A DNA stretch of 19,583 bases from Pseudobdellovibrionaceae bacterium (GTDB taxonomy: Bacteria; Bdellovibrionota; Bdellovibrionia; Bdellovibrionales; Bdellovibrionaceae). Positions 1,453 through 19,583 of this stretch are shown here, one piece after another; the first letter of the stretch is position 1; every line of letters begins with the position of its first letter. A program made the position numbers and the translations under genes. The stretch covers positions 1 to 19,583 of the forward strand of contig JBIKLL010000051.1 of the NCBI GenBank assembly GCA_044359815.1, written 5' to 3'. The notes beneath the pieces are model-generated. The model was not told the DNA's origin and searched no databases. It saw only the letters and a program-made list of their open reading frames with translations.

Positions 1453-1965
1453 ATGCAACCACGATTACAAACTTCAAAAAAATGGACGGCCTTTCCTAAG
1501 GAATTTGCCACTCAAGTTTTTGATATTTTTGAAACTCATTTTAAATCAAAGCTTAAAGGCGGTAAATTGATCGTCGAGGGCAGAATCTATCCAGAGGAAG
1601 TTTTGCTGCGCGTTGGCGTGCTTCAAAAAGGCAAACTGGCTCAGCAAAATTTTGAGGTTTCTGCACAGTACAGTTACAAAGATTTAGATGCCGATCAAAA
1701 AATCAATGACTGCATCGACGTCGCGGCCACCTTGATGGACGAGCTACTGTCGCTCCCCGAGGATCAGGAGATCGAATTCCCCCTGGTTTGGACCGAATTT
1801 TCTGAAAATAAATCAAAAATCTTTTTTAAATACACCACGGTCAATACCGAACTGGAAGCAGAGGCCGACAAGATTTTAGGTGTCGCTGCCACTGACGATC
1901 TGGTCAAAGAAGAACCAGACGACGACCCCAACCAACCTCCTAAAAACAAAAACAAGCTTCACTAA
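1453..1965 (+). CDS. Hypothetical protein (170 aa), acidic C-terminal tail
   Basis: Clean ATG-initiated ORF filling the gap, divergent from miaB, with AGGA upstream. No family recognised. Confidence 0.8.
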   Translation: MQPRLQTSKKWTAFPKEFATQVFDIFETHFKSKLKGGKLIVEGRIYPEEVLLRVGVLQKGKLAQQNFEVSAQYSYKDLDADQKINDCIDVAATLMDELLSLPEDQEIEFPLVWTEFSENKSKIFFKYTTVNTELEAEADKILGVAATDDLVKEEPDDDPNQPPKNKNKLH

Positions 1966-1966
1966 T

Positions 1967-2346: not shown

Positions 2347-2351
2347 GCCTG

Positions 2352-3707
2352 TTAAGCTTGGTCTTTTTCTAGGAGCTCGGCGATGCTTTTGGCATAAGTG
2401 GCAATTTGGTTTTTGTCAGGACCTTCAACAAGTATCCTGATCAGAGGCTCAGTACCAGAGTATCTGACAAAGATTCGACCTTCGGATTTAAGCTCTTGGG
2501 TGTATTTTCTTATCAGATCGTCGTATCCAGCAACGGCGCTAAGCTCTTTGCGTTTTTTTACTCGGCAATTAATCAAAATTTGCGGAACGTCTTCGATTAG
2601 GTGATTCAGTTCGCTCAGCTTTTTGCCCTCTTGAATCATAACCGCTAAAACGTTAAGAGCTGCCACACATCCATCACCTGTTGTTGTGTGATCCAAAAAT
2701 ATAATGTGACCAGATTGTTCGCCGCCCAGATTGTGTCCGTTTTGTCGCATTTCTTCCACGACGTATTTGTCACCCACATTTGTTTTAACAACTTTGATTC
2801 CATTTTCACTGAGCTTTTTTTCCAGACCAAAATTACTCATCTGGGTTACAACCAAGGTGTTGTTTTTCAGTGTGCCCTTTTTCTTCATGTGTAAAGCGCA
2901 GACTCCCAAAATGTGATCCCCGTTCATTAAATTGCCTTTTTCATCGGCCATAATCACTCGGTCTGCATCACCATCCAGACTGATTCCCACATCAGCTCTG
3001 TATTGAACTACAGCAGCGGCTAATTTTTCTGGATAAAGAGCGCCAACCTTGTCATTGATATTTGTACCATTGGGCGTGTTACCGATATGAATGACTTCTG
3101 CGCCGAGCTCTTCAAAAATTGCAGGAGCAACCTTGTAGGCAGCTCCGTTGGCTGTGTCTAATACAATTCTGATTCCATCCAGAGTGTATTCCAGCGGAAA
3201 TGTGTTTTTAGCAAACACGATGTAGCGACCTTGGGCATCGTCGATTCGCTTGCTGCGACCAATTGAATTAGATCCTGAAAGATTCAAAGACTTTGTGACT
3301 AAATCTTCGATTTGTTTTTCAACTGAATCATCAATTTTGTAGCCATCTGGACCGAATATTTTAATCCCATTGTCTTGATAGGGATTGTGACTGGCTGAAA
3401 TCACAATCCCGCAACTGGCTCTCATATTTCGGGCCAAAAAACCAATCCCTGGTGTTGGTAGTGGACCCACCAATTGCACATGCACACCCATTGAATTTAA
3501 ACCTGATGCTAGAGCTTGCTCAATCATGTAACCCGAAAGCCTGGTGTCTTTACCGATAACTACTTTTTTAGGAAGACTGGGGTTTTTGGCTCGCTGCTGA
3601 TTAAGCCAAAATCCAATGGCTTGTCCAACCTTCAACACCAAATCAGGTGTCATTGGCAGTTGGTTTGCCGTTCCTCTGATTCCGTCTGTGCCAAACAGTT
3701 TTCCCAT
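2352..3707 (-). CDS. glmM: Phosphoglucosamine mutase
   Basis: FGTDGIRG N-terminus, catalytic ISASHNP, metal loop DGDADR, GGEQSGH and RYSGTEPLIR motifs. Confidence 0.96.
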   Translation of the reverse strand: MGKLFGTDGIRGTANQLPMTPDLVLKVGQAIGFWLNQQRAKNPSLPKKVVIGKDTRLSGYMIEQALASGLNSMGVHVQLVGPLPTPGIGFLARNMRASCGIVISASHNPYQDNGIKIFGPDGYKIDDSVEKQIEDLVTKSLNLSGSNSIGRSKRIDDAQGRYIVFAKNTFPLEYTLDGIRIVLDTANGAAYKVAPAIFEELGAEVIHIGNTPNGTNINDKVGALYPEKLAAAVVQYRADVGISLDGDADRVIMADEKGNLMNGDHILGVCALHMKKKGTLKNNTLVVTQMSNFGLEKKLSENGIKVVKTNVGDKYVVEEMRQNGHNLGGEQSGHIIFLDHTTTGDGCVAALNVLAVMIQEGKKLSELNHLIEDVPQILINCRVKKRKELSAVAGYDDLIRKYTQELKSEGRIFVRYSGTEPLIRILVEGPDKNQIATYAKSIAELLEKDQA

Positions 3708-3708
3708 G

Positions 3709-4101
3709 CTATTCTTTCGTCTGCAATTCTGCGTTTATTTGATTGGGTTTTACAGAGATCACTTTCACTCCAAAGGGAACATCAATTTTTTGCAGAGGCA
3801 CATCCAAGGTTAATTTACCATCTGCCTTTTTGGTTACGTCTAATGAAACCAATTGCACAGCTCCGGATTCTAGAAATTTTTTAAGTGCCGTTCGAGGGCC
3901 AGAAAATTTAACTTTCACATGATCTGCGGACTGGCTGATGATGGTTTGATTTGGGGCTGTGACCAATTCAACCTCAAGATTTCTGGTCAAAATAAAATCT
4001 CGCCGTCCCAAAATTGTAAACCACAAAATCAGTGCAATAAATAACGCCACCAATTTGTAGCTTAAATTTTCACCTGCAATTTCAAGAAGCTTTTGTTTCA
4101 T
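3709..4101 (-). CDS. cdaR: Short YbbR/CdaR-like protein (N-terminal TM helix plus one YbbR-like beta domain)
   Basis: N-terminal ENLSYKLVALFIALILWF pattern typical of YbbR/CdaR, plus a V.V..SGPR motif. Sits between cdaA and glmM as in the conserved operon. Confidence 0.75.
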   Translation of the reverse strand: MKQKLLEIAGENLSYKLVALFIALILWFTILGRRDFILTRNLEVELVTAPNQTIISQSADHVKVKFSGPRTALKKFLESGAVQLVSLDVTKKADGKLTLDVPLQKIDVPFGVKVISVKPNQINAELQTKE

Positions 4102-4858: not shown

Positions 4859-4868
4859 TTTATTTTTA

Positions 4869-6821
4869 CTAAGCTGTTACTGGTCCTGGATTTCCGACGG
4901 GGTCTGTTGAAGATTTCTTAACCTCTGAAACTTCAGCCTGAGTTCCCCCTGAACTCCCGTTATTATTTTTATTGCTTCTAACCTTTGCGATTTCAGAAAC
5001 AGCGGCTCCATTCACCAGCATTTCAACTTCCACGCCGTCAATGGTTTCGTATTCCAGCAATGCCACCGCCAGTCTTTCCAAAGCGTCTCTGTTATCAACT
5101 AAAATATTTTTTGCTACTTTAAAGCCTTCCTCAACAATTTTAAAAACTTCAGCATCAATTTCTTCGGCCTTTGAATCCGAATATTCTTTAGTGGTGCTGC
5201 CATAATTCAGTCCTAAAAACACAGGGCCTTCGCGTTTTTCATAGGACAGGGGGCCCAGCTTTTCGCTCATTCCCCATTCGCAAACCATCCGACGAGCAAT
5301 CTCGGTAGCCCGCTCGATGTCATTGCCAGCACCTGTTGTGATATCGCCAAACACGATTTCCTCGGCAGCTCTGCCACCAAACAAAAATGAAATCATGTTT
5401 TTAGCTTTAGTCTTAGATAAATTTAAACTGTCTTTTTCAGGAAGAGTCTGAGTTACCCCCAAAGCCATTCCCCTGGGAATAATTGTGACTTTGTGAATAG
5501 GATCAATGCCCACTAATTTTTTACCTACCAGTGTGTGACCTGCTTCGTGATAAGCTGTGACTCTTTTGTCTTCATCTGAAATCACCATGGACTTGCGTTC
5601 ACTGCCCATAAGAACCTTGTCTTTTGCTCGTTCAAAATCGTCCATAGTTAAATATTTTTTATCTGTGCGGGCGGCAATAAGTGCAGCTTCGTTGGCCAGA
5701 TTTTCTAAATCAGCTCCAGAAAACCCTGGAGTCCCTCTGGCGATTTTTTCTAAGTCCACATCAGGTCCCAGCGGAGTCTTTTTAGTGTGCACATCCAAAA
5801 TTTGCTTTCGGCCATTCACATCAGGTTTATTAACAACAACCCTTCTGTCAAATCTGCCTGGTCTTAATAAAGCCGGATCCAACACATCAGGACGGTTAGT
5901 CGCTGCAATTAAAATAACTCCGTCATTGCTCTCAAAGCCATCCATTTCAACCAGCAACTGATTAAGAGTTTGCTCCCTCTCATCATGCCCGCCGCCCATG
6001 CCAGCCCCTCTGTGCCTTCCGACAGCGTCGATCTCGTCGATAAAAATCAAGCACGGAGCTTGTTTTTTACCCTGTTCAAACAAATCTCTGACACGGCTTG
6101 CGCCTACGCCCACGAACATTTCAACGAAATCTGAACCTGAAATAGAAAAAAACGGAACTCCCGCTTCACCAGCAACAGCTCTGGCCAATAATGTTTTACC
6201 TGTTCCCGGAGGACCCACTAACAAAACACCTTTGGGGATTCGCCCACCCAGCTTGGTAAATTTTTTGGGATCTTTTAAAAACTGCACAATCTCTTGCAGT
6301 TCTTCTTTGGCCTCATCGACGCCGGCAACTTCTTTGAAGGTCACACGGTTTTTGGTTTCGTTTAAAAGTTTTGCTTTTGATTTTCCAAAGGACATGGCTT
6401 TACCACCACCGACTTGGATCTGTCGCAGCAATAACATAAACATTCCCACGACTAAAATCACAGGCAGCCAATTAAAAAATAGCGCTTGCATAAACGAGTT
6501 GGAATCGCCCTTTTCGTAATTAGGAGTGATCCCATTGGCGACCAGAAATTTAAAACCCTCATCAGTCGTGTTCCCAGGAATGACAAAGTTTTTACCAGCG
6601 TATTTGCGTTCATAGTCAGCTTTGATTTCGCCAACAATTTCTTCGGTGTCAGTTCTGAAAGTCACTGAAGCGATTTCTTTATTTTTTACTGCTTCAGAAA
6701 ATTTAGCATAGTTAAAATCTTGAATCATAGTTTGGCTTTTATTCTGCCAAGCTTGAATTACAAACACGGCAATCACTACCAGAAAAAGCCAAAGGGCTAA
6801 GGTTTTTTGAGCTGACTTCAT
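4869..6821 (-). CDS. ftsH: ATP-dependent zinc metalloprotease FtsH
   Basis: Two TM segments, Walker A GPPGTGKT, pore FVG, Walker B IFIDEID, second region of homology and HEAGH zinc motif. GGAGG RBS upstream. Confidence 0.98.
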
Positions 6822-6835
6822 AGGCCTCCAAACGG

Positions 6836-6859
6836 TCAGAGAAAGTTTTCACTTTCTGA
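6836..6859 (-). promoter_or_regulatory. Small hairpin with GAAA tetraloop in the ftsH leader
   Basis: Minus strand reads AGAAAGT-GAAA-ACTTTCT (6857-6840), immediately 5' of the ftsH RBS. Confidence 0.35.
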
Positions 6860-6920
6860 TTAAGAATAGCTTATCACAATTCTCAGCGATGCCACAACAA
6901 AGCTCAGTGATTGCAAAAAT

Positions 6921-7916
6921 TTAGGTCCTATGTTTTGGATCTATTTGGACAAGGATAAGCCCTGCGTTAATTGACCAGATCATGGGACCCAGTACGAAGT
7001 TGTGCAGTTTTTTTGGATTGTCCAGTCGCTTTTGGATTTCTTTGACCTGCCCTAGCGAAAAATTCTTATAACCAGCATTAAAAATCATCTGACCAAGGAC
7101 TGTTTTCTGCTGCGAATCCGACAGAAGCCAGTAATTTTGCACAGTCATTGGGCTGATCTGGGAAAAATCTTGTTCCGACGACTGACAGATTAATTCCAAT
7201 GATCTGGCAAGACTTTCTGTGGATCCAGGACGGACCATTTGCAACTGTGGCAACCAAAAATTTCTGATCCAATTGCGCAAAAAATGATTTTGTTGATTTG
7301 AGGGATCCTGCATCCATTTTAATTCGCATTTTTTTGCATAGGACAGCAAAGATTTCTTTGAAAACTCTAGAGCAGGCCTTAGCTTCCAGTCATTAATAGG
7401 TTTTAGTGATCTGAGCCCCTTTAGACCCGATCCCCGAATCAGCTGAATCAATCTGGTTTCCAGCAGATCATCTTGGTGATGTGCGGTAGATACAAAGTCA
7501 AACTTCAAGCGTTCTTTAAGCTTTAATAGCTCTTGGTAACGAAAGATTCTTAACTGGTTTTCAGCTATCAGCGACTGCTCACTGGGTCCCAGCGCATAAA
7601 ATTGCAAATTATAGGATTTTGCCAACTCTTTGCAAAAACTCTGAGCCTGATTTCGGTATTCAATATCACCGCCATGATGAACATAGGCAACAACTAGATT
7701 CTGCCTTTGAGTTCTGGCGATGGCTTTAAAAAACAAATCAACAAGCACCACAGAATCCACTCCGCCAGACACCGCTATGATGATTTTTTTATCCAATACA
7801 TTGAGATGCCTTAGTTGCTGACTAAACCGATGATTCAGATTAACCCAAGTTGATTTTTTAAATGGTTTGTCTGTTTGATTTGTACTCGTATTTTCAGACA
7901 CAGCTTTGTTTTGCAT
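6921..7916 (-). CDS. tilS: tRNA(Ile)-lysidine synthetase TilS (short form; start uncertain)
   Basis: PP-loop AVSGGVDS, TAHHQDDLLET, RGSG, DPSN and RNWIR motifs. Upstream of ftsH, as in the common tilS-ftsH synteny. Confidence 0.92.
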   Translation of the reverse strand: MQNKAVSENTSTNQTDKPFKKSTWVNLNHRFSQQLRHLNVLDKKIIIAVSGGVDSVVLVDLFFKAIARTQRQNLVVAYVHHGGDIEYRNQAQSFCKELAKSYNLQFYALGPSEQSLIAENQLRIFRYQELLKLKERLKFDFVSTAHHQDDLLETRLIQLIRGSGLKGLRSLKPINDWKLRPALEFSKKSLLSYAKKCELKWMQDPSNQQNHFLRNWIRNFWLPQLQMVRPGSTESLARSLELICQSSEQDFSQISPMTVQNYWLLSDSQQKTVLGQMIFNAGYKNFSLGQVKEIQKRLDNPKKLHNFVLGPMIWSINAGLILVQIDPKHRT

Positions 7917-8053
7917 GGGGCTTTAATTAGCACGAATTCAATTGAAATCAACTCTGGTAACCTTTGAGGGTTTGAGTTTTTTAAATAGAGTGAATTTTAC
8001 TGTACAAAATCCTGACACTGGCGGTTTGATTTACCCCCTGTACAATAACCAAT

Positions 8054-8692
8054 ATGGGCTTTTTAAATCTGCTTTTACACAATGGTTTTGTCAAAATCCC
8101 CAGGTCTATGTCCCTTAAGGTTTTTCTGGGGACTGCATGTGCCAGTGTTTTAATGGTATTTTCGCTGGTCACTAATGCCAGCACCAATCCCATTCAGTCA
8201 AAAGTCAAAGAACTGATTAGCTTTTACCAGGATAGCAAATCATTAAAGGCCGAGGAATCCAGATTGATACAAGATTTTTTATACAGACTCAGTTTTAAAA
8301 TTCATACCTTGGGTGCCACCACTGATGAGCGCAAAGTTTTATTAAATGCTTTAGATCAGATTTTACTGGATTCAAATCTGGAGACTCATCCAAAGATTCT
8401 GACCTTCGCTGAGAATCTGTCACAGGCATTGAAAGACCATTTGGAGCCCAAGGAAGACGCCTTTGCCTTTATCAAAAACTTTATTTCCTTTAGTGGCATC
8501 GATGACCCAAAAGACGTGAATGAGTTTTTTGAAAAACAAGATTATGTGAACAAAAAAAGCTTTATCACGGCCCAGAACCCGATGTTTGAGGAAGCCGGTC
8601 AGTTTGCTATTTTAAAAACTGAACCTCAGGTGGACCTATCCAAGATCAATTTACTGTTTGATTTTAAATTTCAATCAAACCCAACAAATTGA
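8054..8692 (+). CDS. Hypothetical protein, probably exported (alternative start ATG 8108 gives a signal peptide)
   Basis: Long ORF filling the gap. MSLKVFLGTACASVLMVFSLVTNA resembles a Sec signal peptide. Its 3' end overlaps the convergent ALDH gene by 22 nt. Confidence 0.7.
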   Translation: MGFLNLLLHNGFVKIPRSMSLKVFLGTACASVLMVFSLVTNASTNPIQSKVKELISFYQDSKSLKAEESRLIQDFLYRLSFKIHTLGATTDERKVLLNALDQILLDSNLETHPKILTFAENLSQALKDHLEPKEDAFAFIKNFISFSGIDDPKDVNEFFEKQDYVNKKSFITAQNPMFEEAGQFAILKTEPQVDLSKINLLFDFKFQSNPTN

Positions 8693-10032
8693 TGATTTAT
8701 AAACTCATAAAACCCAGGCTTTCCTAGCTCCTTGCCGTAACCTGATCCCCTGACCCCGCCAAAGGGAACTCTGATGTCAGACTTTATCATGGCATTCACT
8801 GCCACCATACCCACTTGCAGCCCTGTGGCGATTTCGTTCGCAAGATTAAGGTTTTTCGCAAACAAAGCAGCGCCCAGTCCGTATTCGGAATCATTGATGG
8901 CTTTTACCACCTGATCTGAGTCTGTAAATTCAGCCACCATTCCTACGGGTCCAAAATATTCTTGGTTTTTAAAATGGGGATGATCGACATTGGTTTCAAC
9001 AATCTGAATGGGATGGTAACTGGTTTCAGAAAATTCAGGTGGCAGTTTTTCTGAAAATACCAATTTCCCGCCAGTGCTTAAATGCTCAGAGACTTGTTTT
9101 TTTAATTGCACAACAAAGCGCTGATGCGCCAATGCCCCTCTATCAGTGCTGGGATTTTGAGCCAGACCTAGTTTTAGCTTCTGCAATTCTGTAAAAAACA
9201 AATCTAAAAATTCAGCTTTGATTGAGCTTTCTATCAGAAATCTTTTGGCAGATATGCAGGCTTGTCCATTATTAACCATTTTCGCCATGGCACAAATCTG
9301 TGCTGATTTTTCAAGATCGGCATCTTTAAAAATCACGTAGCAATCATTACCGCCAAGCTCTAGGACTGACTTTTTTAAATACTTACCAGCCAATGAAGCA
9401 ATGACCGACCCCCCAGACTGACTGCCCGTAAAGGTCACAGCACGAATGGTTTTATTTTTAACAACCATTTCTATTTTGGAATGGGGAATTCTCAGATTTT
9501 CCGCCACTGGCACCGTTGAGTTTAAAATACTGACTATTTTTTCTGCGCTGCCAGCTGTGATATCTGAATGTTTAATGATCAAACTATTCCCGTTTAGCAC
9601 GCTGACCACAGCTACTCTGATCACCTGCCAAAGCGGGTAATTCCAAGGCATCACCGCCAGTATCACTCCTAGGGGCTGTTTGATCAAAACTGTCTGTTTA
9701 TAATGCGCCCCTGGAGTTTCAGAATTCATCATACCAGTAAAATTTTGAGACGCGTATTGCAGTGAAAATATCGATTTATCTATTTCTGCCAATGAATCTT
9801 TGATGGGCTTTCCCATTTCGACTGAAATCAAAGTGGCCAAAACACTTCTGTCTGTTTGCAAAGCTGCTGCAATGGATTGCAGAATTTTTATTCTGCCAGT
9901 TTCATCAATGGATTTTAATTGTTCAAAATTCTGTTGAGCTTTTAGAATGATTTCGTAAATCTCCGAGTCGGTATGATAATTATAACTACTCAGTGTTTTT
10001 AAATTTTCAGGGTTGACTGTGTTAAATTCCAC
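8671..10032 (-). CDS. NAD(P)-dependent aldehyde dehydrogenase, succinate-semialdehyde dehydrogenase (Sad/GabD1)-like
   Basis: EMGKP, PWNYP, FTGS, catalytic ELGG and NGQAC, EYFGPV and PFGG motifs. Start placed at GTG 10032 (VEFNTVNP) by analogy with family N-termini; the ORF is open to 10068. Confidence 0.9.
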   Translation of the reverse strand: MEFNTVNPENLKTLSSYNYHTDSEIYEIILKAQQNFEQLKSIDETGRIKILQSIAAALQTDRSVLATLISVEMGKPIKDSLAEIDKSIFSLQYASQNFTGMMNSETPGAHYKQTVLIKQPLGVILAVMPWNYPLWQVIRVAVVSVLNGNSLIIKHSDITAGSAEKIVSILNSTVPVAENLRIPHSKIEMVVKNKTIRAVTFTGSQSGGSVIASLAGKYLKKSVLELGGNDCYVIFKDADLEKSAQICAMAKMVNNGQACISAKRFLIESSIKAEFLDLFFTELQKLKLGLAQNPSTDRGALAHQRFVVQLKKQVSEHLSTGGKLVFSEKLPPEFSETSYHPIQIVETNVDHPHFKNQEYFGPVGMVAEFTDSDQVVKAINDSEYGLGAALFAKNLNLANEIATGLQVGMVAVNAMIKSDIRVPFGGVRGSGYGKELGKPGFYEFINHQFVGFD

Positions 10033-10255
10033 TCCACACAAATAACTCGACAAAAGAAGATATGACAATAGCGAAAGATGTCAGACTCAATATTAAATAG
10101 GCTGACGCTTTATAAACCCGTTCCAATTTTAAAGCTGATTTTTTATAAGGACTGCTGAAGGCAAAAACAGGATTTGCTATGCAGGCTCTAAAAAACTGAT
10201 TACAGCTAAAAACGAAAAACACTGTTGATAGGAGACTGACAATATAAAGCATCAT
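10022..10255 (-). CDS. Small membrane protein (77 aa, two hydrophobic helices)
   Basis: ATG start, two hydrophobic stretches flanking a basic loop, fills the gap and overlaps the ALDH start. Confidence 0.5.
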   Translation of the reverse strand: MMLYIVSLLSTVFFVFSCNQFFRACIANPVFAFSSPYKKSALKLERVYKASAYLILSLTSFAIVISSFVELFVWSGI

Positions 10256-10262
10256 GATACAG

Positions 10263-10290
10263 AGCCCATCGGCTTGATACCAATGGGTCT
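10263..10290 (-). terminator. Hairpin downstream of the 233-aa ORF (possible weak terminator)
   Basis: Minus strand CCCATTGG-N7-CCGATGGG stem with one G-U pair, about 20 nt after the stop codon. No strong U tract. Confidence 0.3.
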
Positions 10291-10306
10291 AAATACGACA
10301 ATGGTC

Positions 10307-11008
10307 TTAAAATTCTTCTTCTTCACTGATTGAAGATTCAGAGGTCATACCCCTTACTTCATCAATAAAGCTTTGAGTCTCGTCTTCAAATTCATTGTCC
10401 AGAGCTGCTTCATCAATTTCAAGCTCTTGAATAGCTGCCAAGAAATCTTTTTCGTTTCTCAGATCTTTCCTGATCATTTCTAAGAACTTATCTGGATAAC
10501 GTGATGTGAGTTCTTCAACATAACGCTCAAGCTTACCATCAGCCAAAATTTTACGTCTGACCTGGATTTTCTTCCAAAGAGCCAGGTAATGAAATCTGCA
10601 GTAACCTTCAACCACACCTATTTGATCGCAATCCCTGACCCGGCAATACCTGCGACCTTCAGCGTCGGTCAGAATCACTTCCTCAGGACCGCTTTCTTTA
10701 GCCACAACGGATTCAGACTCCAGAACTTCAATGGAGGCGTCCTCGGTGACCTCTACAGTTTCATCAAACTCAGACAGATCAGGAATTTCCTCGGCACCAA
10801 AATCTTCATCAGATTCTAAAATAACTTCATCCGAAGCGGGCTTTTCTTTGCTTTTTTTGCCGCCTTTAACCTTGGAAGGTATGGGGCTTTGCTTCTTTTT
10901 TGCTGCAGCGCTTAACTCTGATTTTGCCGAGTCTTTTTGCTGCTTTGCTGCATTTTTATTATCTGATTTATTACTGACTGTCTTCTTAGGTGTTTTTGTT
11001 TTTGCCAT
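10307..11008 (-). CDS. Hypothetical protein: Lys-rich then acidic disordered N-terminus, C-x4-C-x9-C-x2-H putative Zn site, helical acidic C-terminus
   Basis: Sequence composition and the motif YCRVRDCDQIGVVEGYCRFHY. Confidence 0.85.
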   Translation of the reverse strand: MAKTKTPKKTVSNKSDNKNAAKQQKDSAKSELSAAAKKKQSPIPSKVKGGKKSKEKPASDEVILESDEDFGAEEIPDLSEFDETVEVTEDASIEVLESESVVAKESGPEEVILTDAEGRRYCRVRDCDQIGVVEGYCRFHYLALWKKIQVRRKILADGKLERYVEELTSRYPDKFLEMIRKDLRNEKDFLAAIQELEIDEAALDNEFEDETQSFIDEVRGMTSESSISEEEEF

Positions 11009-11044
11009 AGAGATTGGATGAACGATTCAGACAAACAAGTCAAA

Positions 11045-12010
11045 TTATTTTACAACAATTGTGCCTTCCGAAGACCTTGCAACAACTTGTCCCTTCACTC
11101 CACCGCCACGGGCGTGACCCTTATAAACTTTGTTTGAGCCATCACGATAGGCTTTTAAGTTGCCGGGCAAATACAATTCGCCGTCCTCGGTGGACAGACT
11201 TAAATAAGCAGAGCTGTCTTTAGGCAAAACCACTGTAAGTCGGCCTTTTTGAGAGCGGACATTTATATCAGCTTCCTCTGAAGGATTCAGGGATACTGAT
11301 CCATCTAGAATTTGACCTTCCATTCGGCCTTTAAAGGAATTCGTTGATAAAATCCCCTTCTTAACATCAAATTTTAAAGTCCCCGATGAATCTTTGATGT
11401 TTGATTTTCCCTTGGTCGTAGAAACCTGCATTGATCCCTGAGATTTTTCAATGCTAGTGTCACCTACAAAATTAGAAACAATCAGCTCACCTGTTTGCTT
11501 GGTGATTTTAACCATGGCTGCAAAAGAATCGGCCTCAATACTGCCGACATTTTCATCAGCCACTAATTCACCATTAAGCAAAATCACTTTTGCTGTGGAC
11601 TTCAGGGCCTTTAAATTTACCTTAGCCTTTGTGGCTTCAATTAAAATTGGATGTTTCCAATTTTTAACATTGATTGAGCCTTCCTTCAGGTGAACTTCAA
11701 GGGTCAAACTGGGAATTTCAAATTCTAAACTGACAGGCTTTGAAAAATACCGATCACTGACGATAATAGCAGTGTCCTTAATTGAAACCTGCACAGAATC
11801 TGAAGTTCCCTCCAAAATCCGCCATTTTAATTCTTTGGAAGCCGAGGGGATAAAGTTTATTTTGGCATTTTGCAAATTCACGAACATAGTTTCTTGCCCT
11901 GTCAAAATCTTTTGAGCCAATGCTGCAGAAGGCAGCAACGACAGCAATAAGCTCAACACTAGACAAATCGCAGCAACAGAAAAAGCTAAAAAATATTTTT
12001 GAAAACTCAT
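11045..12010 (-). CDS. Secreted DUF4097/adhesin-like beta-strand repeat protein
   Basis: Signal peptide ending ALA-Q, followed by repeated beta-strand units with G-x-(I/L/V) turns (NGELV, VGSIE, TGELI, QGSMQ, SGTLK) and a terminal SSEGTIVVK. Confidence 0.75.
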   Translation of the reverse strand: MSFQKYFLAFSVAAICLVLSLLLSLLPSAALAQKILTGQETMFVNLQNAKINFIPSASKELKWRILEGTSDSVQVSIKDTAIIVSDRYFSKPVSLEFEIPSLTLEVHLKEGSINVKNWKHPILIEATKAKVNLKALKSTAKVILLNGELVADENVGSIEADSFAAMVKITKQTGELIVSNFVGDTSIEKSQGSMQVSTTKGKSNIKDSSGTLKFDVKKGILSTNSFKGRMEGQILDGSVSLNPSEEADINVRSQKGRLTVVLPKDSSAYLSLSTEDGELYLPGNLKAYRDGSNKVYKGHARGGGVKGQVVARSSEGTIVVK

Positions 12011-12016
12011 ACATTG

Positions 12017-12045
12017 ACTCTGCTTTTAATCTGACTTTCTGTCAA
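12017..12045 (-). promoter_or_regulatory. Putative sigma70 promoter for the DUF4097-like gene (possibly leaderless)
   Basis: Minus strand TTGACA (12045-12040), 17-nt spacer, weak -10 CAGAGT (12022-12017), then 6 nt to the ATG with no SD. Confidence 0.3.
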
Positions 12046-12068
12046 AGAACTTTTATCGAAAGGATTTT

Positions 12069-13244
12069 ATGAACCATGCAGTAATTATCGCAGCCAGCCG
12101 CACGCCTGTCGGCAGTTTTCAAGGCAGTCTTTCTGGATTAGCCGCTCCAAAATTGGGAGCGATTGCAATCAAGGAATCTTTAAAAAGGGCTCAGCTAAAA
12201 GCCGAAGAAATTGACGAAGTTATTATGGGTGAAGTTTTAACCGCAGGTGTGGGACAAGCCCCCGCCAGACAATCTGCATTGTATGCAGGTATTGCAAATT
12301 CAGTTCGTTGCATGACAATTAATAAAGTTTGCGGAAGCGGCCTTAAGGCCGTGATGTTGGCGGCTGACTCTGTAAATCTGGGACACAGCCAATTTGTAAT
12401 TGCTGGTGGTCAAGAAAATATGTCTCTTGCGCCTCACCTGATGGAAAACTCCAGAGTTGGCTACCGCATGGGTCCACAAACAATTTCTGACAGCATGGTA
12501 AAAGACGGCTTGTGGGATCCTTACAATAATTTTCACATGGGAAATGCTGCTGAACTTTGTGTGCGCGAATATAAATTTACACGCGAAGAACAAGACGCCT
12601 TTGCGATCGACTCCTATAAAAAAGCCCAAAATGCCATTCAGAGCGGTGCTTTTAAAAATGAAATTGCAGCTGTGGAAATTCAAGACCGAAAGGGCACAAT
12701 TAGAATCGAAAACGATGAAGAACCCGGTAACGCTAAATTTGATAAAATCCCAGGACTACGACCCGCTTTTGAAAAAGAAGGAACTATCACTGCAGCCAAT
12801 GCCTCAAAAATAAATGACGGAGCTGCTGCGCTAGTCGTCACAACAGAAGCTTTGGCAAAACAAAGGGGATCAAAAGTTTTAGCGAAAATTAAAGCTCAGG
12901 CAACATTTGCTCAAGATCCAAAATGGTTCACAACAGCTCCTGTGGGTGCCATGAAAGAAGCTTTAAAAAAAGCAAATCTAACTGTTGATCAAATTGATTT
13001 ATGGGAAATTAATGAGGCGTTTGCCAATGTCACTATGGCAGCAATTAGAGATCTAAAAATTGATCCAGCACGTGTAAACATCAATGGTGGAGCTGTTGCC
13101 ATAGGTCATCCAATTGGCGCCAGTGGAGCCAGAATTTTAACGACGCTTTTGTATGCTCTGGAAGCTAAAAATAAAAAATACGGAATGGCTTCACTCTGCA
13201 TAGGTGGCGGAGAAGCTGTTGCTGTTATTGTGGAAAGACCCTAA
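12069..13244 (+). CDS. atoB: Acetyl-CoA C-acetyltransferase (thiolase)
   Basis: NKVCGSG catalytic Cys, NEAF, GHPIGASG and CIGGG motifs. AAGGA RBS. Confidence 0.93.
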   Translation: MNHAVIIAASRTPVGSFQGSLSGLAAPKLGAIAIKESLKRAQLKAEEIDEVIMGEVLTAGVGQAPARQSALYAGIANSVRCMTINKVCGSGLKAVMLAADSVNLGHSQFVIAGGQENMSLAPHLMENSRVGYRMGPQTISDSMVKDGLWDPYNNFHMGNAAELCVREYKFTREEQDAFAIDSYKKAQNAIQSGAFKNEIAAVEIQDRKGTIRIENDEEPGNAKFDKIPGLRPAFEKEGTITAANASKINDGAAALVVTTEALAKQRGSKVLAKIKAQATFAQDPKWFTTAPVGAMKEALKKANLTVDQIDLWEINEAFANVTMAAIRDLKIDPARVNINGGAVAIGHPIGASGARILTTLLYALEAKNKKYGMASLCIGGGEAVAVIVERP

Positions 13245-13262
13245 AGATCAGAAAAGAGTTTT

Positions 13263-13955
13263 ATGAAAAAAGTATTTTCAAACGCTACAGAGGCCCTATT
13301 TGATATCAAAGATAACGTAACAATTGTCTTGGGTGGGTTTGGACTTTGTGGAATTCCAGAAAATTTGATCCAGGCTTTGAAAGAATCTAAGGCCAAGGGA
13401 TTAACCTGCGTTTCAAACAATGCAGGTGTTGACGACTGGGGACTGGGCTTACTGTTGCAAACCCGACAAATCAAAAAAATGATTTCAAGCTATGTGGGTG
13501 AAAATGCTTTATTTGAAAAACAATACTTAAACAAAGAACTGGAAGTGGAATTTTGTCCCCAGGGAACTTTGGCCGAAAGAATCCGAGCTGGTGGAGCCGG
13601 CATCGCTGGTTTTTACACTCCTACAGGAGTCGGCACCAAGGTCGCCGAAGGTAAAGATATTAGAAAGTTTGATGGGAAAGAGTTTGTTTTAGAAACAGGC
13701 ATCAAAGGCGAATTTGCATTTGTGAAAGCTTGGAAGGGCGATAAGTTTGGAAATTTAATTTATCGAAAGACCAGCAGAAATTTTAATCCCATGGCGGCCA
13801 CTGCCGGGAAAGTCACGATTGCCGAAGTTGAAGAGCTGGTCGAAATCGGCCAGTTGGATCCGGATCAGATCCATACACCTGGTGTTTATGTGCAAAGAAT
13901 TTTTCAAGGAACTAATTATCAAAAGCGCATCGAACAAAGAACGGTGAGGAAATAA
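13263..13955 (+). CDS. scoA: Succinyl-CoA:3-ketoacid CoA transferase subunit A
   Basis: [31 protein letters not shown] and IHTPGVYV motifs. Confidence 0.93.
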
Positions 13956-14620
13956 TGCCACTAAATCGAGATCAAATTGCAGCCCGTATTGCAAAAGAGG
14001 TTGAAGACGGATTTACCGTTAATCTGGGTATTGGTATTCCAACCTTGGTAGCTAATCATATTCCCGCCGATAAGTTTGTCATGTTTCAAAGTGAAAATGG
14101 TTTGTTAGGAATGGGAGCTTTCCCATCTGAGTCTGAGGTCGATGCTGATTTAATCAATGCCGGAAAACAAACTGTTACCTGTGTAGCCGGCGCCAGTTTT
14201 TTTTCCAGTGCAGACAGTTTTGCAATGATTCGTGGTGGCCATGTGGATTTAACAGTTTTGGGGGCCATGGAAGTGGATGAATTGGGCAGCATCGCAAACT
14301 GGATGGTTCCCGGAAAAATGGTTAAGGGCATGGGTGGCGCCATGGATTTAGTTGCTGGAGCCAAGCGCGTGATAGTGGCCATGCAACACACTGATAAGGA
14401 AGGTAATTCAAAGCTACGAACTAAATGTCTACTGCCTCTGACTGGGGTTCAATGCGTGCACAAAATTGTTTCTGACTTGGGAGTCTTTGATGTAACCAAA
14501 GAGGGATTTGTCCTACTTGAGCATGCTCACGACGTAAGTATAGACCACATCAAGCAGCACACCGAAGGCAGACTCACCATCAGCAAAAACGTAAAACCCC
14601 TAACCCTGCACGGGGCATAG
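13955..14620 (+). CDS. scoB: Succinyl-CoA:3-ketoacid CoA transferase subunit B
   Basis: NLGIGIPT, catalytic SENG and GMGGAMDL motifs. TAATG stop/start overlap with scoA. Confidence 0.93.
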   Translation: MPLNRDQIAARIAKEVEDGFTVNLGIGIPTLVANHIPADKFVMFQSENGLLGMGAFPSESEVDADLINAGKQTVTCVAGASFFSSADSFAMIRGGHVDLTVLGAMEVDELGSIANWMVPGKMVKGMGGAMDLVAGAKRVIVAMQHTDKEGNSKLRTKCLLPLTGVQCVHKIVSDLGVFDVTKEGFVLLEHAHDVSIDHIKQHTEGRLTISKNVKPLTLHGA

Positions 14621-14913
14621 ATCTGAATAACTAGCTGGACCTACGTCTGCGCAATGGCTTTGCTAAAAACTTAAAGATCAATGAAGACAATTTAAAAGCA
14701 TTTAATTTTAATTTAATGAGACCTCCGCGGAGCCTGGACGGCGGGGGCTTGGCCCGAGCGGAGAAGCAGGAGCTGCGTCTCATTAAATTAAAATTAAATG
14801 CTTTTAAATTGTCTTCATTGAACTCGTGTTTACTAGCATCTATTTTGCCTTAGGTCCTTAGTCTAAGGAAGATTCATTCAGACCTACGCCCCGTGCAGGG
14901 AATCAGGGGTTTT
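14593..14913. repeat. Giant fold-back element 2: perfect 45-bp inner inverted repeat plus imperfect outer stems enclosing a 54-nt GC-rich core
   Basis: 14678-14722 is the exact reverse complement of 14777-14821. 14604-14628 pairs with 14876-14900 (23/25). 14593-14601 pairs with 14905-14913. GGACCTA 14637-14643 pairs with TAGGTCC 14851-14857. Confidence 0.95.
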
Positions 14914-14942
14914 TCCGAAAACTAAATAGGAATCACATAATT

Positions 14943-15935
14943 ATGGGCGCACGCAAGTTACAAAAAGACCACTACCTGTTTCGCGAAGGTGATCCACCTG
15001 ATGCGATGTACGTTTTAAAAAGCGGAAGGCTTGCTGTTGTCAAAACAAAATCAAATTCAGAAGTTCTGCTTGCAGAGCTAAATCCAGGGGCGATGGTCGG
15101 AGAAATGGCTTTCTTTGACAATAAACCCAGAAGCGCATCCGTCAAAGCTGTGAAAGATTCAGAAGTCATTGCCCTTCCCTACAAAGCTTTGCACGCTCAG
15201 TTTTCAACTTTTCCAGAATGGTGCAAAGCAATCATGCGAACTGTGAACGATCATTTGCGAAACGCTAATCAAAGAATCAAGCAGCTTGAAAAATCAGATG
15301 CTGAGGGCGGTGGTGATTTATTTCCTCCGCACACAATCAATAAACTGATTTCGATTCTGAATTTGATTGGAACTAAATTTGGTAAGCTTAACGAAACAAC
15401 AAAGCTTATGGAAATCAATGGGCAGACTCTGCGTGATTACACGATTCAGATATTTCAGGAACCCACGCACAAAATGCAAAAACTCACAAACGTACTGATG
15501 GATTTAGAATTGGTAAAAGTCGAAGAAATGGGCGAAGGAAAATCAAAAGTCATCATTTTAAAACCAGATTTATTGTATAGCTTTGTTTATTGGTACAACG
15601 ATTGGTTATTCAAGCAAGAAAAAGACCGTGTCACAATCAAGGAAGAAGAACTAAAAATCCTAACAGCCCTGATTCATTTTGCAAAAAAACAGCAGCCTGA
15701 TGATAAGGGCATAACAAAAATTAATTTAACTGAAATGCAAAACGATTCCATGCGCGAACTTGGTTATTTGGTGAAAACTGAGGAAACAGCTCCTTTAGTT
15801 GAAAAAAAGATCATTGGTGATCACGTTATGTCGGATGACGGGAAAGCCTTGTTCACATCATTTAAATTAGATGAGATCGAAAAAACAGCGCCTTATTGGA
15901 AGATCATTTATACATTAACAAAAGTTCGCAGATAA
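14943..15935 (+). CDS. Cyclic nucleotide-binding (Crp/Fnr-type cNMP domain) protein with uncharacterised C-terminal region
   Basis: LFREGD...MYVLKSG and phosphate-binding cassette GEMAFF-x4-RSASV. TAGGA RBS. Confidence 0.88.
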   Translation: MGARKLQKDHYLFREGDPPDAMYVLKSGRLAVVKTKSNSEVLLAELNPGAMVGEMAFFDNKPRSASVKAVKDSEVIALPYKALHAQFSTFPEWCKAIMRTVNDHLRNANQRIKQLEKSDAEGGGDLFPPHTINKLISILNLIGTKFGKLNETTKLMEINGQTLRDYTIQIFQEPTHKMQKLTNVLMDLELVKVEEMGEGKSKVIILKPDLLYSFVYWYNDWLFKQEKDRVTIKEEELKILTALIHFAKKQQPDDKGITKINLTEMQNDSMRELGYLVKTEETAPLVEKKIIGDHVMSDDGKALFTSFKLDEIEKTAPYWKIIYTLTKVRR

Positions 15936-16000
15936 GCAGCAACCCCCAAAATTTTAAATCTTTAATCAGATTGCCGCTCTAAAAACTCGACAAAGACCGC

Positions 16001-16630
16001 TTAGTAACAACGACCTTCCCAAGTAACAATTTTTTCTCTAAATCGCTTTAAGGAATAAAAGTTTGCAATGGCTTCAGTATCATTGTTGCTGCCCAGATTA
16101 ACTCGGACATCTTTTGTAGTTTCCCTAAAATAGTACTCAACGTCTTGATTACCCCAACGAGTCACATATCTGTAGTCGCATCTTTGGTGCCCTTGATTGT
16201 CGATGTAGCAATATCTTTCACGAACTTCATAACGGCAGCTTTGCCAGTCTCGGTAAGTCTGAGACCGCTCAACCGAGGTTGCCACTCTTACAAAAACATC
16301 AAAAGGCTGCCCCGTCATACCCGCAGGTAAAGCCATAGATCCGTTTTCTGGCAATTCTAAATTCTTGGGAACCATCAATTTAATTTCGTATTCTTTATCC
16401 CCTGGACCCTCTAGTTCAATTTGCACTAGATCTTTTTTCTTTTTTTCGATTGTGGTTTTGTATTGTCCTGCAGGTATTTGTTCTTTATCAGGTCCACCCG
16501 GTTTTAAATTGTAAATAAACGGTCTTTTTACTGATGTCGTCCCATCAATTTCATCACAGGCAACTCCCAAAACCAAAAGAGCCGGCAGTAAAAACAAGCG
16601 AACTGTTTTGCTTAGCGTAGATATGTTCAT
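16001..16630 (-). CDS. Putative lipoprotein of unknown function
   Basis: ATG 16630 preceded by a GGGGGA SD. Signal peptide with lipobox-like LGVA-C; four further Cys in the mature part. Confidence 0.8.
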   Translation of the reverse strand: MNISTLSKTVRLFLLPALLVLGVACDEIDGTTSVKRPFIYNLKPGGPDKEQIPAGQYKTTIEKKKKDLVQIELEGPGDKEYEIKLMVPKNLELPENGSMALPAGMTGQPFDVFVRVATSVERSQTYRDWQSCRYEVRERYCYIDNQGHQRCDYRYVTRWGNQDVEYYFRETTKDVRVNLGSNNDTEAIANFYSLKRFREKIVTWEGRCY

Positions 16631-16750
16631 AATCCCCCCTTGAACACTATTTAACATTGTTAGCTCACCAGTCTTAAAGCAAAATAAAAATTAACAGCCA
16701 ATCACTAAATAATGACGCACAAAATTGATTACATAAGATTTTTTTAAATA

Positions 16751-18235
16751 CTAATAAACGCCTTCAAGACGGCATCTAAGCGGCAATAGGGTTTCATCAA
16801 GCTTGCTTATGTTTTCAGCCCCCAAATTAAAAATATACAAAGAATTGGTTTTGGAATTCTCTTGTATCGGTTGCCCATAGGTTAAAACGATTTTATCCCC
16901 TGTCTTGGCTAATCCATAACTTACCAGCAGCTTTTCAACCTGATTTTTAACTTCATCCAGGGATGAATAAGGCAAAATAGGTAAAGTCTGAATCCCCCAA
17001 ATCAGTTCTAGCTTATTTAAAGTTGGAAACTGATCTGTAACCGCAATGATTCTGGCTTTTGGGCGAAAGCCAGAAATTATCTGAGCAGTTTTTCCAGAAG
17101 TGGTCAGACAAACAATCACTTTCGCTTCGATCTTTAGAGCGCTTAAACTTCCTGACGCAGCGATGGCTGCGGCCGTAGATAAAAATTCATTTTCCAAACT
17201 GATTTTATAATACTTTTCCTGATTGTCTTCGACCTCTTTAATGATTTCGTGCATGGTCCTAATACATTTAAAAGGGTACTTTCCACTGGCTGTTTCTGCA
17301 GATAACATCAGGGCATCTGAACCATCCAATACAGCGTTAGCTATATCAGTGATTTCAGCCCTGGTAGGCCTGGGATTTTCAACCATACTATCAAGCATTT
17401 GAGTGGCAGTGATAACCGGCTTGTTCAGCAAATTACACAAATGAATAATTTGTTTTTGCATGGCCGGCAGTCGGCTTTGCCCTACTTCAACAGCCAAATC
17501 ACCGCGAGCAACCATCACAGCATCAGACAGTCTGACTATGTCTTCCAGATTTTCGATAGCTTCCAGCATTTCAATTTTGGCACAGATCTTTGTTGATGGA
17601 TTTTTAGCATCAATAAGTTCCCTCAATTTACGAATGTCTTTACCTGATCTAACAAAACTCAAAGCAACGTAATCAACGTTTTCATTCAGACCAAATTCTA
17701 AGTCTTTTAGATCTTTCTCTGTCAAGCAATCGACTTGTAATCTTTCATTGGGGACATTCATCCCTTTGCGATCTTTTAGGATACCACCATAGATAACTTC
17801 AGCAATGACTTCATCATTTTTAATGTCGACGACCTTAAGCTCTAACAATCCATCGTCTAATAAAATTTTAGATCCCACAGAAACTGATTTTGCAAGATCA
17901 GGAAAGTCACTCGGTATCAGGCCAACGTCACCAACCACAGATTTCATTGTGATCGTAACCTTTTCGCCTTGTTTTATAGGTATAGACCCATTCTTAAATT
18001 TCCCCACTCTGATTTTTGGACCCTGCAGATCCTGCAAAATAGTTAGTGGTGCTTGCAATGATGTTGAAAGCGTTCTTAGGTTTTGAATTACTTTTAAATG
18101 ATCTTCGTGATTACCATGGCTGAAATTCAGTCGGGCTACATTCATCCCCGCTCTAATTGCATTTTCTAGAGCTTCTTTTGCTTGCGTCGATGGGCCAATA
18201 GTTGCAACGATTTTTACCCTTCGATCCGCCAACAT
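16751..18235 (-). CDS. pyk: Pyruvate kinase
   Basis: KIVATIGP, ARLNFSHG, DLQGPKIR, AKIE, MVARGDL, ATQMLDSM, PTRAE and MLSAETASG motifs. Confidence 0.97.
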   Translation of the reverse strand: MLADRRVKIVATIGPSTQAKEALENAIRAGMNVARLNFSHGNHEDHLKVIQNLRTLSTSLQAPLTILQDLQGPKIRVGKFKNGSIPIKQGEKVTITMKSVVGDVGLIPSDFPDLAKSVSVGSKILLDDGLLELKVVDIKNDEVIAEVIYGGILKDRKGMNVPNERLQVDCLTEKDLKDLEFGLNENVDYVALSFVRSGKDIRKLRELIDAKNPSTKICAKIEMLEAIENLEDIVRLSDAVMVARGDLAVEVGQSRLPAMQKQIIHLCNLLNKPVITATQMLDSMVENPRPTRAEITDIANAVLDGSDALMLSAETASGKYPFKCIRTMHEIIKEVEDNQEKYYKISLENEFLSTAAAIAASGSLSALKIEAKVIVCLTTSGKTAQIISGFRPKARIIAVTDQFPTLNKLELIWGIQTLPILPYSSLDEVKNQVEKLLVSYGLAKTGDKIVLTYGQPIQENSKTNSLYIFNLGAENISKLDETLLPLRCRLEGVY

Positions 18236-18240
18236 TCAAA

Positions 18241-19583
18241 TCACCCTTTTCTGCTGTAGTAATTTATTTTACCAGACAATGCTTGCATTTGCTCCTGGTG
18301 CTTTTTTTCAATACGATCTAAATCTTTTTGATGAGCATCATGTAGCTGCGCCATCTTGTTCTGAAATTTCATTTCCTGTGACTCTAAAGTTTGTTCAACA
18401 GCTTTTTCCCGAACTTCGCTTTTTTGCTGAAACAAATCTTGCTGTCGCTTTATTTCATTTTTATGAACCTCGTCTTTAATTGCAATTTCTTTTTCATACT
18501 GATCTATAGTAGTTGAATATTTGGTTTGATTTTTCCGTTCTTGATCTCTGAGCTTTTTTTCCATCTTCAAATACTGATCTTTAATAACATCTATTTGAGC
18601 AATCCGTTGATCTGCCAATCTGTCAGCCTGCACGTTTTTCAGATTATCAATACTTTTTCTGTGCATTTTTTCTTGCAGCGATTGAGTCTCGGTAGTGGTC
18701 TTCATGATTTTGCCAATACGATCTTCCGTGTTGTTTTTAACGTAATCAATCTCCCCCTCATAGTTAGAGATCAATTGATTTCTATCCTGGCGATTTCTTG
18801 TTAACATAATATTTTGTTCCAACTTATGTTTACGGCTAGTATCAGAAAGCATTTTATCAGAACGATCGATTACGTCGTTAACACGCGATCTGGCTTTGTC
18901 GTTAACGACATCAGTGATCGCTTCCTTTTGGAAATTTAAATCTTTAAATCGATCATCATAGGCTCGCTTAACATTTTTTAATTCTAAATTGGTAAGCCTT
19001 TGACCCTTGACCTGATTGGCGTTGTATTCATGCTTAGCTTCAGCTGCTTTAAGCTCGGCACTTCTCACTCGCTTTTCCATATACCCAATGGATTGTTCTT
19101 TTAGGCGATCACGGTAATTATCAAAGTCTTTAACCTTTTTATTAAGCTCTTCTGCATAACGTTTTCTTAGATTTTCTTTTTCACTTTGCAGGATTTTGTC
19201 ACGGGCTGATAAAACTGTGTCAGTTTCTTTCTGGGAAGTGTTATAAACTGTCATCCAATTTTCATTGGTCTGCGCGATCTTATTGTCAGATTGTCGTTTC
19301 TGGTCTTTTAGTTGAGTTTTTAAAGCCCTTGCTGTTTCGTCATTGTGATTGGTCAGTGACATGACTTTTTGGTCACGGTCTTGGACCAGGGCCTTTAACT
19401 CCTTGTTAAATTTTTCATTCAGCTTGCGAGCCTGAGTTTCAATGGCTTTTCGCATTCCGTCTCTGGATTGTTCTGCATACTCAAAAAAGTTTTTTTCTTG
19501 TTCTTGATGACTGGCATCGAATTCTTTTTTCAGCAATTCACGCTGTTGCCTGTTGATATTCCGCTCTTTGTCCAATTCGTTTG
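18241..19583 (-). CDS. Long coiled-coil protein, 5'-truncated by the window edge
   Basis: E/K/Q/R-rich and proline-free helical sequence over more than 440 aa. The reading frame stays open past TTG 19575 to the window end, and the stop is 5 nt from the pyk start. Confidence 0.8.
   Translation of the reverse strand, partial: NELDKERNINRQQRELLKKEFDASHQEQEKNFFEYAEQSRDGMRKAIETQARKLNEKFNKELKALVQDRDQKVMSLTNHNDETARALKTQLKDQKRQSDNKIAQTNENWMTVYNTSQKETDTVLSARDKILQSEKENLRKRYAEELNKKVKDFDNYRDRLKEQSIGYMEKRVRSAELKAAEAKHEYNANQVKGQRLTNLELKNVKRAYDDRFKDLNFQKEAITDVVNDKARSRVNDVIDRSDKMLSDTSRKHKLEQNIMLTRNRQDRNQLISNYEGEIDYVKNNTEDRIGKIMKTTTETQSLQEKMHRKSIDNLKNVQADRLADQRIAQIDVIKDQYLKMEKKLRDQERKNQTKYSTTIDQYEKEIAIKDEVHKNEIKRQQDLFQQKSEVREKAVEQTLESQEMKFQNKMAQLHDAHQKDLDRIEKKHQEQMQALSGKINYYSRKG

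Follow-up and report, generated by a model that had tools for sequence, protein, structure and literature searches.

A fold-back repeat behind scoB carries an inverted copy of the scoB coding end in a Pseudobdellovibrionaceae bacterium

A long imperfect palindrome follows a scoB-type gene in a Pseudobdellovibrionaceae bacterium (assembly GCA_044359815.1, contig JBIKLL010000051.1). The stretch of DNA analyzed, hereafter the window, comprises positions 1 to 19,583 of this contig (19,583 nt). The left end of the palindrome contains the last codons of scoB, and its right end contains the same sequence in inverted, non-coding form. The locus raises the question of how the end of a protein-coding sequence came to be mirrored on the far side of a repeat. 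A first-pass annotation offered two answers: either the element copies adjacent host DNA into its opposite arm, which would also explain why arms differ between loci, or its insertion supplied the C-terminus of ScoB. The present study examined the structure of this locus, the ancestry of the mirrored codons, and the recurrence of such mirrors throughout the genome.

The palindrome at scoB and the ancestry of its codons

The features of the locus are listed in Table 1. The scoB open reading frame (ORF) ends in NVKPLTLHGA-TAG (ORF list, translation), and the gene is the last in a thiolase-scoA-scoB run, with Pfam matches to thiolase at 12069 and to CoA_trans at 13263 upstream. The gene order within 12069-15935 is thiolase, scoA, scoB, and the cyclic-nucleotide-binding (cNMP) gene. 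Orthologues of scoB were found in 35 of 40 relatives, with identities of 63-77%. The spacer between scoB and the cNMP gene is 322 nt and is nearly all occupied by the palindrome at 14593-14913. By eye, approximately 11 of 28 relatives have this gene downstream of scoB as well, beginning 0-105 nt past the stop codon.

Table 1. Coordinates of the scoB gene, the parts of the palindrome, and the downstream gene in the window
Feature	Position	Strand	Basis or detail
scoB-type gene (3-oxoacid CoA-transferase B subunit-like), 221 aa, C-terminus KPLTLHGA-TAG	13955..14620	+	ORF list; Pfam CoA_trans 8e-48
Outer left arm, unique to the locus: final 28 nt of scoB (K P L T L H G A stop) and the next 8 nt	14593..14628		Repeat search, local alignment, short-word BLAST
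Left intermediate zone, unique in the genome, patchy pairing with 14825-14875	14629..14674		Alignment, fold
Inner left arm, AT-rich, homologous to the arms of other copies	14675..14722		48 nt, 98% complementary to 14777-14824
GC-rich conserved core of the repeat family, ~55 nt, small internal hairpins	14723..14776	+	blastn, nhmmer, RNAalifold
Inner right arm	14777..14824		Repeat search
Right intermediate zone, patchy pairing only	14825..14875		Alignment, fold, short-word BLAST
Outer right arm, non-coding, repeats the scoB 3' end in inverted form	14876..14913		Repeat search, local alignment
Cyclic-nucleotide-binding-domain gene, downstream	14943..15935	+	ORF list; Pfam cNMP_binding 8.7e-25

The repeat search paired 14604-14628 with 14876-14900 over 25 nt (23 matches, 92%), and both mismatches inside this block are A-versus-G differences, i.e., transitions. 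Local alignment linked this block, over a bulge of 2 versus 4 nt, to a second block in which all nine positions match (AAAACCCCT at 14593-14601 and AGGGGTTTT at 14905-14913). Over their entire length (14593-14628 and 14876-14913), the outer arms show 33 matches, three mismatches, and two gap columns in 38 columns. The outer stem opens with AAAA, and the outer right arm leads into a T5 tract at 14910-14914. The intermediate zones (46 and 51 nt) pair in approximately 31 of 55 aligned columns by our own count, and the short patches involved (GGACCTA/TAGGTCC and others) are visible in both the alignment and the fold. The inner ~16 nt of the left zone are probably the end of the canonical arm, as suggested by a by-eye alignment to other copies. 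The account given in the first-pass annotation of the mirror and of the pairing patches between the outer and inner stems proved accurate in every detail that we checked.

When 14588-14920 was folded as RNA, it formed one hairpin with an energy of -162.4 kcal/mol (z = -13.7), which none of 100 shuffles equaled. All three bases of the TAG codon are paired in this fold, and the stem is predicted to sequester the scoB stop codon in the mRNA, as the first-pass annotation had also expected. The match between the outer arms exceeds chance. Their score of 26.5 was reached in 0 of 2970 cross-copy control comparisons, and a coding-end mirror score of at least 18 occurred at 3 of 2168 gene ends without the scoB-element family.

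Short-read assemblers stumble on palindromes and repeated cores, and an assembler that folded back through the inverted repeat could have generated the mirror. However, contigs from four public metagenome runs, which belong to different studies and are labelled lake-water metagenomes, tie each arm contiguously to its own, distinct flanking gene and differ from the window by 0-3 positions. The left arm is present in contigs covering 14326-14695, 14326-14722, 14487-14707, and 14506-14663, and the right arm in contigs covering 14723-15218, 14792-15211, and 14746-14983. In one run, overlapping contigs tile the whole stretch; the repeated core is, as expected, where contigs break. None of the run contigs skips the element, although contigs of this kind cannot show the absence of an empty form. 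The mirror is, moreover, short, imperfect, and followed by a different gene, and the same architecture occurs in 60 other copies. The mirror, whose presence in read data the first-pass annotation had listed as a check, is not an assembly artefact; that reading has practically no probability.

Another concern was that the outer arm might recur at other copies as an ordinary fixed terminal repeat of the MITE (miniature inverted-repeat transposable element) type. All 41 non-self genomic matches to 14593-14913 were confined to query positions 91-224. In short-word BLAST, the outer arms and the intermediate zones matched each other only, besides chance 12-17-mers. The outer arms are locus-specific.

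The C-termini of ScoB were read in 28 relatives (29 loci, one of which was cut by a contig end). In 18 of the 28, the ScoB stop codon directly follows the residue that lines up with the final L of KPLTL, with endings such as VKPMKF, CKPMTL, and VKPLEL; 17 carry [KR]-P-[MLIV] at the place of KPLTL. Judged by this alignment, KPLTL is ancestral. The left arm is old coding DNA and, therefore, the right arm is a derived copy of host sequence, at least over the part with the KPLTL codons. By the same comparison, HGA is a lineage-specific extension of three residues and not ancestral. At least six of the 28 relatives bear their own short lineage-specific C-terminal extensions; the HGA extension needs no element because relatives carry short extensions too. 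A search for closer ScoB loci or an empty site found no genome of the same genus among species representatives and no empty site, and the best ScoB in a scan of metagenome contigs was 76% identical. The closest ScoB relatives are 76-77% identical, and the order of events is thus not observed.

A repeat family located at gene ends

The core occurs in 50 copies by short-word blastn and in 64 copies by an nhmmer profile in the 2.95-Mb, 125-contig genome. Clear palindromic arms are present in 58 of the 64 copies, and two of the remainder are truncated by contig ends. The palindromes are typically 160-240 nt long; about a dozen span 250-358 nt. The family is non-coding and fold-back, with a structured core of ~55 nt between AT-rich arms of ~58 nt, and its homology wanes ~35-75 nt out from the core hit. 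Within copies, the arms are 91.6% complementary over 3535 pairs, whereas their median identity between copies is 0.59. The inner arms are diverged homologues of one common arm and not captured host DNA. The proposal that copying of host DNA explains the differences in arms between loci consequently holds for the outer arms and fails for the inner ones.

Mismatches in the arms alone comprise 76 G.T and 59 A.C pairs (p = 0.17), and the strand asymmetry is not significant. A strand asymmetry of 57 versus 26, obtained with core-edge positions included, was considered as a sign of selection at the RNA level and was rejected on the basis of the counts without these positions. Both mismatches in the 25-nt block at scoB are A.C on the mRNA strand and carry no wobble signature of RNA-level maintenance.

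The core varies in a manner consistent with a conserved structure. In the alignment and RNAalifold, core pair 22-56 occurs as T-A (23 rows) and as C-G (22 rows), and pair 62-72 as A-T (35 rows), G-C (9), and G-T (1); because the copies are related by descent, there are fewer independent events than these row counts suggest. By eye, three copies have GAGC/GCTC and one has GGAC/GTCC in place of the GGGC/GCCC stem. Sub-types of the core carry a ~25-nt replacement of one hairpin or have lost another. Rfam gave no match at the gathering score in the whole window and none at E<=10 in 14560-14950, and among 20 other copies it gave only sub-threshold matches to plant miRNA precursors and sRNAs, which reflect the long-hairpin shape. 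With its compensatory changes and no Rfam match, the 55-nt core is a candidate for a new structured nucleic-acid motif. Candidates for what maintains it are a protein site, an RNA or single-stranded DNA structure, and gene conversion between copies.

A search of the genomes of 40 relatives found no real match to the core (a single 29-nt hit, E = 2.9e-4). An exact 22-nt degenerate core pattern gave ten single chance matches among species representatives, all in GC-rich genomes, and none among viral contigs, in collections that may omit the genome of the window or one very near to it. Literature on palindromic or intergenic repeats of Bdellovibrio and on miniature inverted repeats, judged by titles and the beginnings of abstracts, did not describe the family. 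In the collections searched, the family appears so far to be restricted to one genome.

Paired copies of the family lie ~130-180 nt apart, in tandem or inverted, at C52:6682-6980 and C105:28819-29075. The window contains another palindrome at 1945-2368, named fold-back element 1, in which a 142-nt center is enclosed by arms of 75 nt (89%) and 54 nt (96%). Its outer arms overlap the stop regions of the convergent genes 1453..1965 (+) and 2352..3707 (-). By eye, its center resembles a reversed core of the scoB family with AT-rich inserts; the profile search did not detect it.

The copies are located at the 3' ends of genes. With long ORFs as proxies for curated gene annotation, 25 of 60 armed copies lie between convergent 3' ends, compared with 397 of 2471 adjacent gene pairs genome-wide, and none of the 60 lies between divergent starts, compared with 413 of the 2471 pairs; 16 of the 60 are in a tandem context. 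The median distance from the edge of the palindrome to a stop codon is 2 nt; the stop codon is overlapped in 35 of 78 cases, and the distance is 15 nt or less in 42 of 78. The orientation of the core relative to the upstream gene is unbiased (nine same, seven opposite).

Recurrence of mirrored flanks

The first-pass annotation had suggested a genome-wide check of whether the arms of other copies mirror their local flanks, and this check was positive. To score outer palindromy, the left flank of each copy, more than 62 nt beyond the edge of the core hit, was compared with the right flank of the same copy after reverse complementation, and the right flanks of other copies served as controls. It was above the 99th percentile of controls in 11 of 55 copies and above the 95th in 16 of 55. 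The scoB copy ranked second among the 55. In a separate test, the 400 nt downstream of each gene were scanned for mirrors of its final 30 coding nt that score at least 12. Element-adjacent gene ends had such a mirror in 8 of 77 cases, and other gene ends in 9 of 2168 (odds ratio 28, Fisher p = 2.5e-8). Among the nine others, at least four flank a second fold-back family and four are ordinary short-loop hairpins.

Orthologues conserve the mirrored residues at four loci, scoB included. At C4, IFERSFS-stop is mirrored perfectly over 15 nt, and the orthologues indicate that the residues are ancestral; the relatives of this gene have ordinary short terminators 30-45 nt past the stop codon, clear of the coding end. 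At C33:94842, GDGI-stop is mirrored at 14 of 15 positions, and at C49:18943, SKT-stop is mirrored at 13 of 13 positions, contiguous with arms that match at 79 of 82; the residues of both are ancestral by orthologues. At C6, the mirrored residues are likely ancestral. At C99, they are partly ancestral, with SGG conserved in a gene that is shorter than its orthologues, and at C116 the tail is unlike that of the orthologues. The mirror at C9 is trivial because the ORF runs into the canonical arm and ends 15 nt from the core hit. The right-hand gene at C21 belongs to a large paralogous family in which no orthologue was assignable. Overlaps of 38 and 34 nt with two convergent genes at C103 were rejected as mostly noise from alignment extension; both C-termini are ancestral there, and strong palindromy is limited to the stop codons and ~13 nt.

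Two genes that end inside palindromes have unusual C-termini. The C99 gene (1777-3171, -) ends 7-15 residues short of all orthologues examined, and the C116 gene (66880-69561, +) has a tail unrelated to that of all orthologues examined. These two genes are candidates for C-termini rewritten by repeats.

The second fold-back family is more abundant, with ~135 loci by BLAST, and has a different, longer core. It is also located after gene 3' ends (e.g., C33:15443-15842, C48:8977-9240, C33:133400-133647, C34:14800-15126, and ~130 more). In at least four copies, the final 17-28 coding nt of the neighboring gene are mirrored.

We consider, with moderate confidence, that the palindrome at scoB expanded in place by template switching during replication. 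A nascent strand would have been templated on the opposite side of the hairpin, as in quasipalindrome-type template switching, and the switch would have duplicated the left flank, the codons for K-P-L-T-L among it, in inverted form to the right of the element. The same switching would keep the arms of each copy complementary while the copies drift apart, and where the overwritten side is coding, it could rewrite C-termini. We infer this mechanism from several patterns. Template switching fits because the arms are near-perfect within copies yet diverged between them, because source and copy are placed roughly symmetrically, and because the pattern occurs in two unrelated fold-back families; a process at the DNA level fits because the arm mismatches show no significant strand asymmetry. 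At scoB, C4, C33:94842, and C49:18943, an ancestral segment lies nearby, and the derived segment is its reverse complement. Of the two answers in the first-pass annotation, copying of adjacent host DNA into the opposite arm is thus supported by the ancestry of KPLTL and by recurrence at other copies. Some observations do not fit easily. The outer and inner stems are not contiguous, which requires a separate switch at the base of the hairpin or later decay, and a bulge of 2 versus 4 nt lies within the ancestral-coding part of the stem. Hairpins that overlap coding ends exist without the element in approximately 4 of 2168 genes, and a pre-existing hairpin is accordingly possible. The evidence from other loci also has weak members, namely the unlike tail at C116, the merely likely ancestry at C6, and the noise at C103.

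The main rival explanation is that the repeat inserted into the loop of a hairpin or terminator that already overlapped the scoB coding end, and that the outer arms are the old stem pushed apart. The preference of the family for convergent 3' ends and its avoidance of divergent starts are consistent with this explanation, as is the outer stem, which is GC-richer than the arms and, with its AAAA start and T5 end, resembles a bidirectional terminator. The zone of poor pairing between the two stems could represent the former loop together with the junctions, and element-free genes with such hairpins do occur. However, these hairpins are rare (9 of 2168 at a score of at least 12, at least four of which are beside the other fold-back family), and the chance expectation is well under one in 77 element-adjacent ends, compared with the eight observed. 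A hairpin target is also not required for insertion, since 39 of 55 copies have no outer palindrome above the 95th percentile. Furthermore, the 36-bp stem far exceeds the terminators of relatives, and in approximately 11 of 28 relatives the short distance to the next gene leaves little room for it. The rarity of hairpins and the many copies without an outer stem disfavor this explanation, and we regard it as unlikely.

The alternative that the insertion supplied the end of ScoB, with the reading frame entering element-borne sequence that gives HGA and the stop codon, accounts for the absence of HGA from the 18 relatives that stop after the aligned L, and other genes do read into or end in palindromes (C9, C99, and C116). 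KPLTL, however, makes up 15 of the 28 mirrored coding nt and, being ancestral, is not element-borne; the HGA region is unique to the locus and does not recur in other copies; and several relatives are extended without any element. We consider this alternative to be improbable. It fails for KPLTL and may hold for the HGA-stop part, for which we infer the direction of copying. It is highly improbable that the right arm arose without copying, by accumulated point mutations, with selection favoring a long 3' stem that terminates or stabilizes the mRNA. The T5 tract, the plausible terminator features, and the paired stop codon in the predicted fold would suit such selection, but stepwise substitution is very unlikely to produce runs of 13-16 mirrored bases free of mismatches at several loci, or matches in 33 of 38 columns at scoB, and the mRNA strand has no G.U bias. 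A more far-reaching variant is a self-extending fold-back element, in which the core is the sole inherited module, the arms are remade in place by hairpin-primed synthesis, flanks are mirrored, and 3' ends and C-termini are systematically rewritten. The core would then act as a binding site or as a catalytic or priming structure in single-stranded DNA or RNA. We regard this variant as unlikely.

Relation to known systems and implications

Expansion in place is most similar to quasipalindrome template switching. Template-switch mutation in quasipalindromes and the expansion of inverted repeats are attributed to the work of Ripley and Lovett, as cited in PMC13100816, and further work on template switching at such sequences is reported in PMC8604942 and PMC5941160. 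As described in PMC13100816 and PMC8794818, one arm templates the other and homogenizes or lengthens it, with source and target at about the same distance from the center. Template switching is described as correcting and expanding inverted repeats, including a yeast arm that grew from 9 to 24 bp (PMC13100816), and as being able to create and extend stems (PMC8794818). The cases presented in these sources are mostly short arms in yeast promoters, rRNA, and reporter genes. In contrast, the block at scoB measures ~36 nt, and a copy of a repeat family separates it from its source, ~250 nt away. The pattern also recurs here at many copies of two families in one genome, with conserved coding 3' ends captured.

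REPINs and REP sequences with RAYT transposases share with this family the many extragenic copies, the inverted doublets predicted to form hairpins in single-stranded DNA or mRNA, and compensatory changes (PMC3116915; also PMC8266576). The genome of the window also encodes Y1 (IS200/RAYT-like) proteins. REPINs, as described in PMC3116915, have conserved 16-mers in the arms and a variable spacer, and the scoB family is reversed, with a conserved center and variable arms. None of nine Y1_Tnp loci inspected is flanked by the element; a degenerate core without palindromic arms (C8:22485-22569) lies ~0.8 kb from one Y1 paralogue. Eight paralogues of ~206 aa have weak matches to Y1 (IS200/RAYT-like) transposases (C23:402, C48:48384, C56:3206, C47:12183, C49:93544, C100:822, C125:2519, and C8:23571). 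They share 80-86% nucleotide identity over the ORF only, and 7-8-nt tandem repeats form arrays next to several of them. Y1 transposase genes were rejected as mobilisers of the family because their copies share the ORF only, with short tandem repeats at the flanks, and do not have the element at their borders. At C8:9768-10106 (-), a distinct RAYT-like Y1 gene has an inverted 13-nt REP-like motif on both sides, and the motif occurs 37 times in the genome. This appears to be an ordinary REP-RAYT system that is unrelated to the scoB element.

MITEs are often co-transcribed and fold into long hairpins, and their terminal inverted repeats are conserved and common to a parent insertion sequence. Bacterial MITEs such as ERIC and Correia, a class with a review in PMC3184786, resemble the scoB family in being small, non-coding, intergenic inverted repeats. 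The many short non-coding copies (64 nhmmer hits, typically 160-240 nt) agree with this class. However, the termini of the scoB family are its least conserved part, as reflected by the low arm identity between copies, and a search for IS110 and Y1 parents found no parent element; transposases of the IS110 family were not found in the genome. By eye, the ends of the element were not sharply definable; therefore, target-site duplications were not scorable.

Intrinsic bidirectional terminators are also located directly after stop codons and have an A-tract and a T-tract around a GC-containing stem, but the scoB structure is 321 nt long, has a folding energy of -162 kcal/mol, and contains a conserved 55-nt core. 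A simple consensus scan for an intrinsic terminator (short GC-rich stem, loop of 3-8 nt, T-tract) found 0 sites in 14400-15100, and only the T5 tract fits. Long inverted repeats that overlap protein-coding sequence are also found in the mitochondrial palindromes of Nematomorpha (PMC6649704). Both arms of those palindromes are described as lying in genes, whereas only the last few codons are involved at scoB and the mirror copy is non-coding.

Given the AAAA start, the T5 tract, and the shorter spacer in approximately 11 of 28 relatives, the outer stem with its T5 tract may terminate or stabilize the thiolase-scoA-scoB transcript and uncouple the next gene. We regard the present findings as a new fold-back repeat family, seen so far only in this genome, together with a known mutational process that acts with unusual regularity. 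Inverted-repeat template switching has so far been known mostly from reporter assays and from scattered events in comparative genomics. In this bacterium, two abundant fold-back families seem to seed palindromes that spread into neighboring DNA, including conserved coding ends. If this is true, the genome offers a natural system in which to see how long hairpins arise and stay perfect. It would also explain why the 'terminal repeats' of such elements differ from locus to locus, which is misleading for repeat annotation. Moreover, repeats of this type would reshape 3' UTRs and the C-termini of proteins, as in the HGA extension of ScoB, the shortened C99 gene, and the divergent C116 tail.
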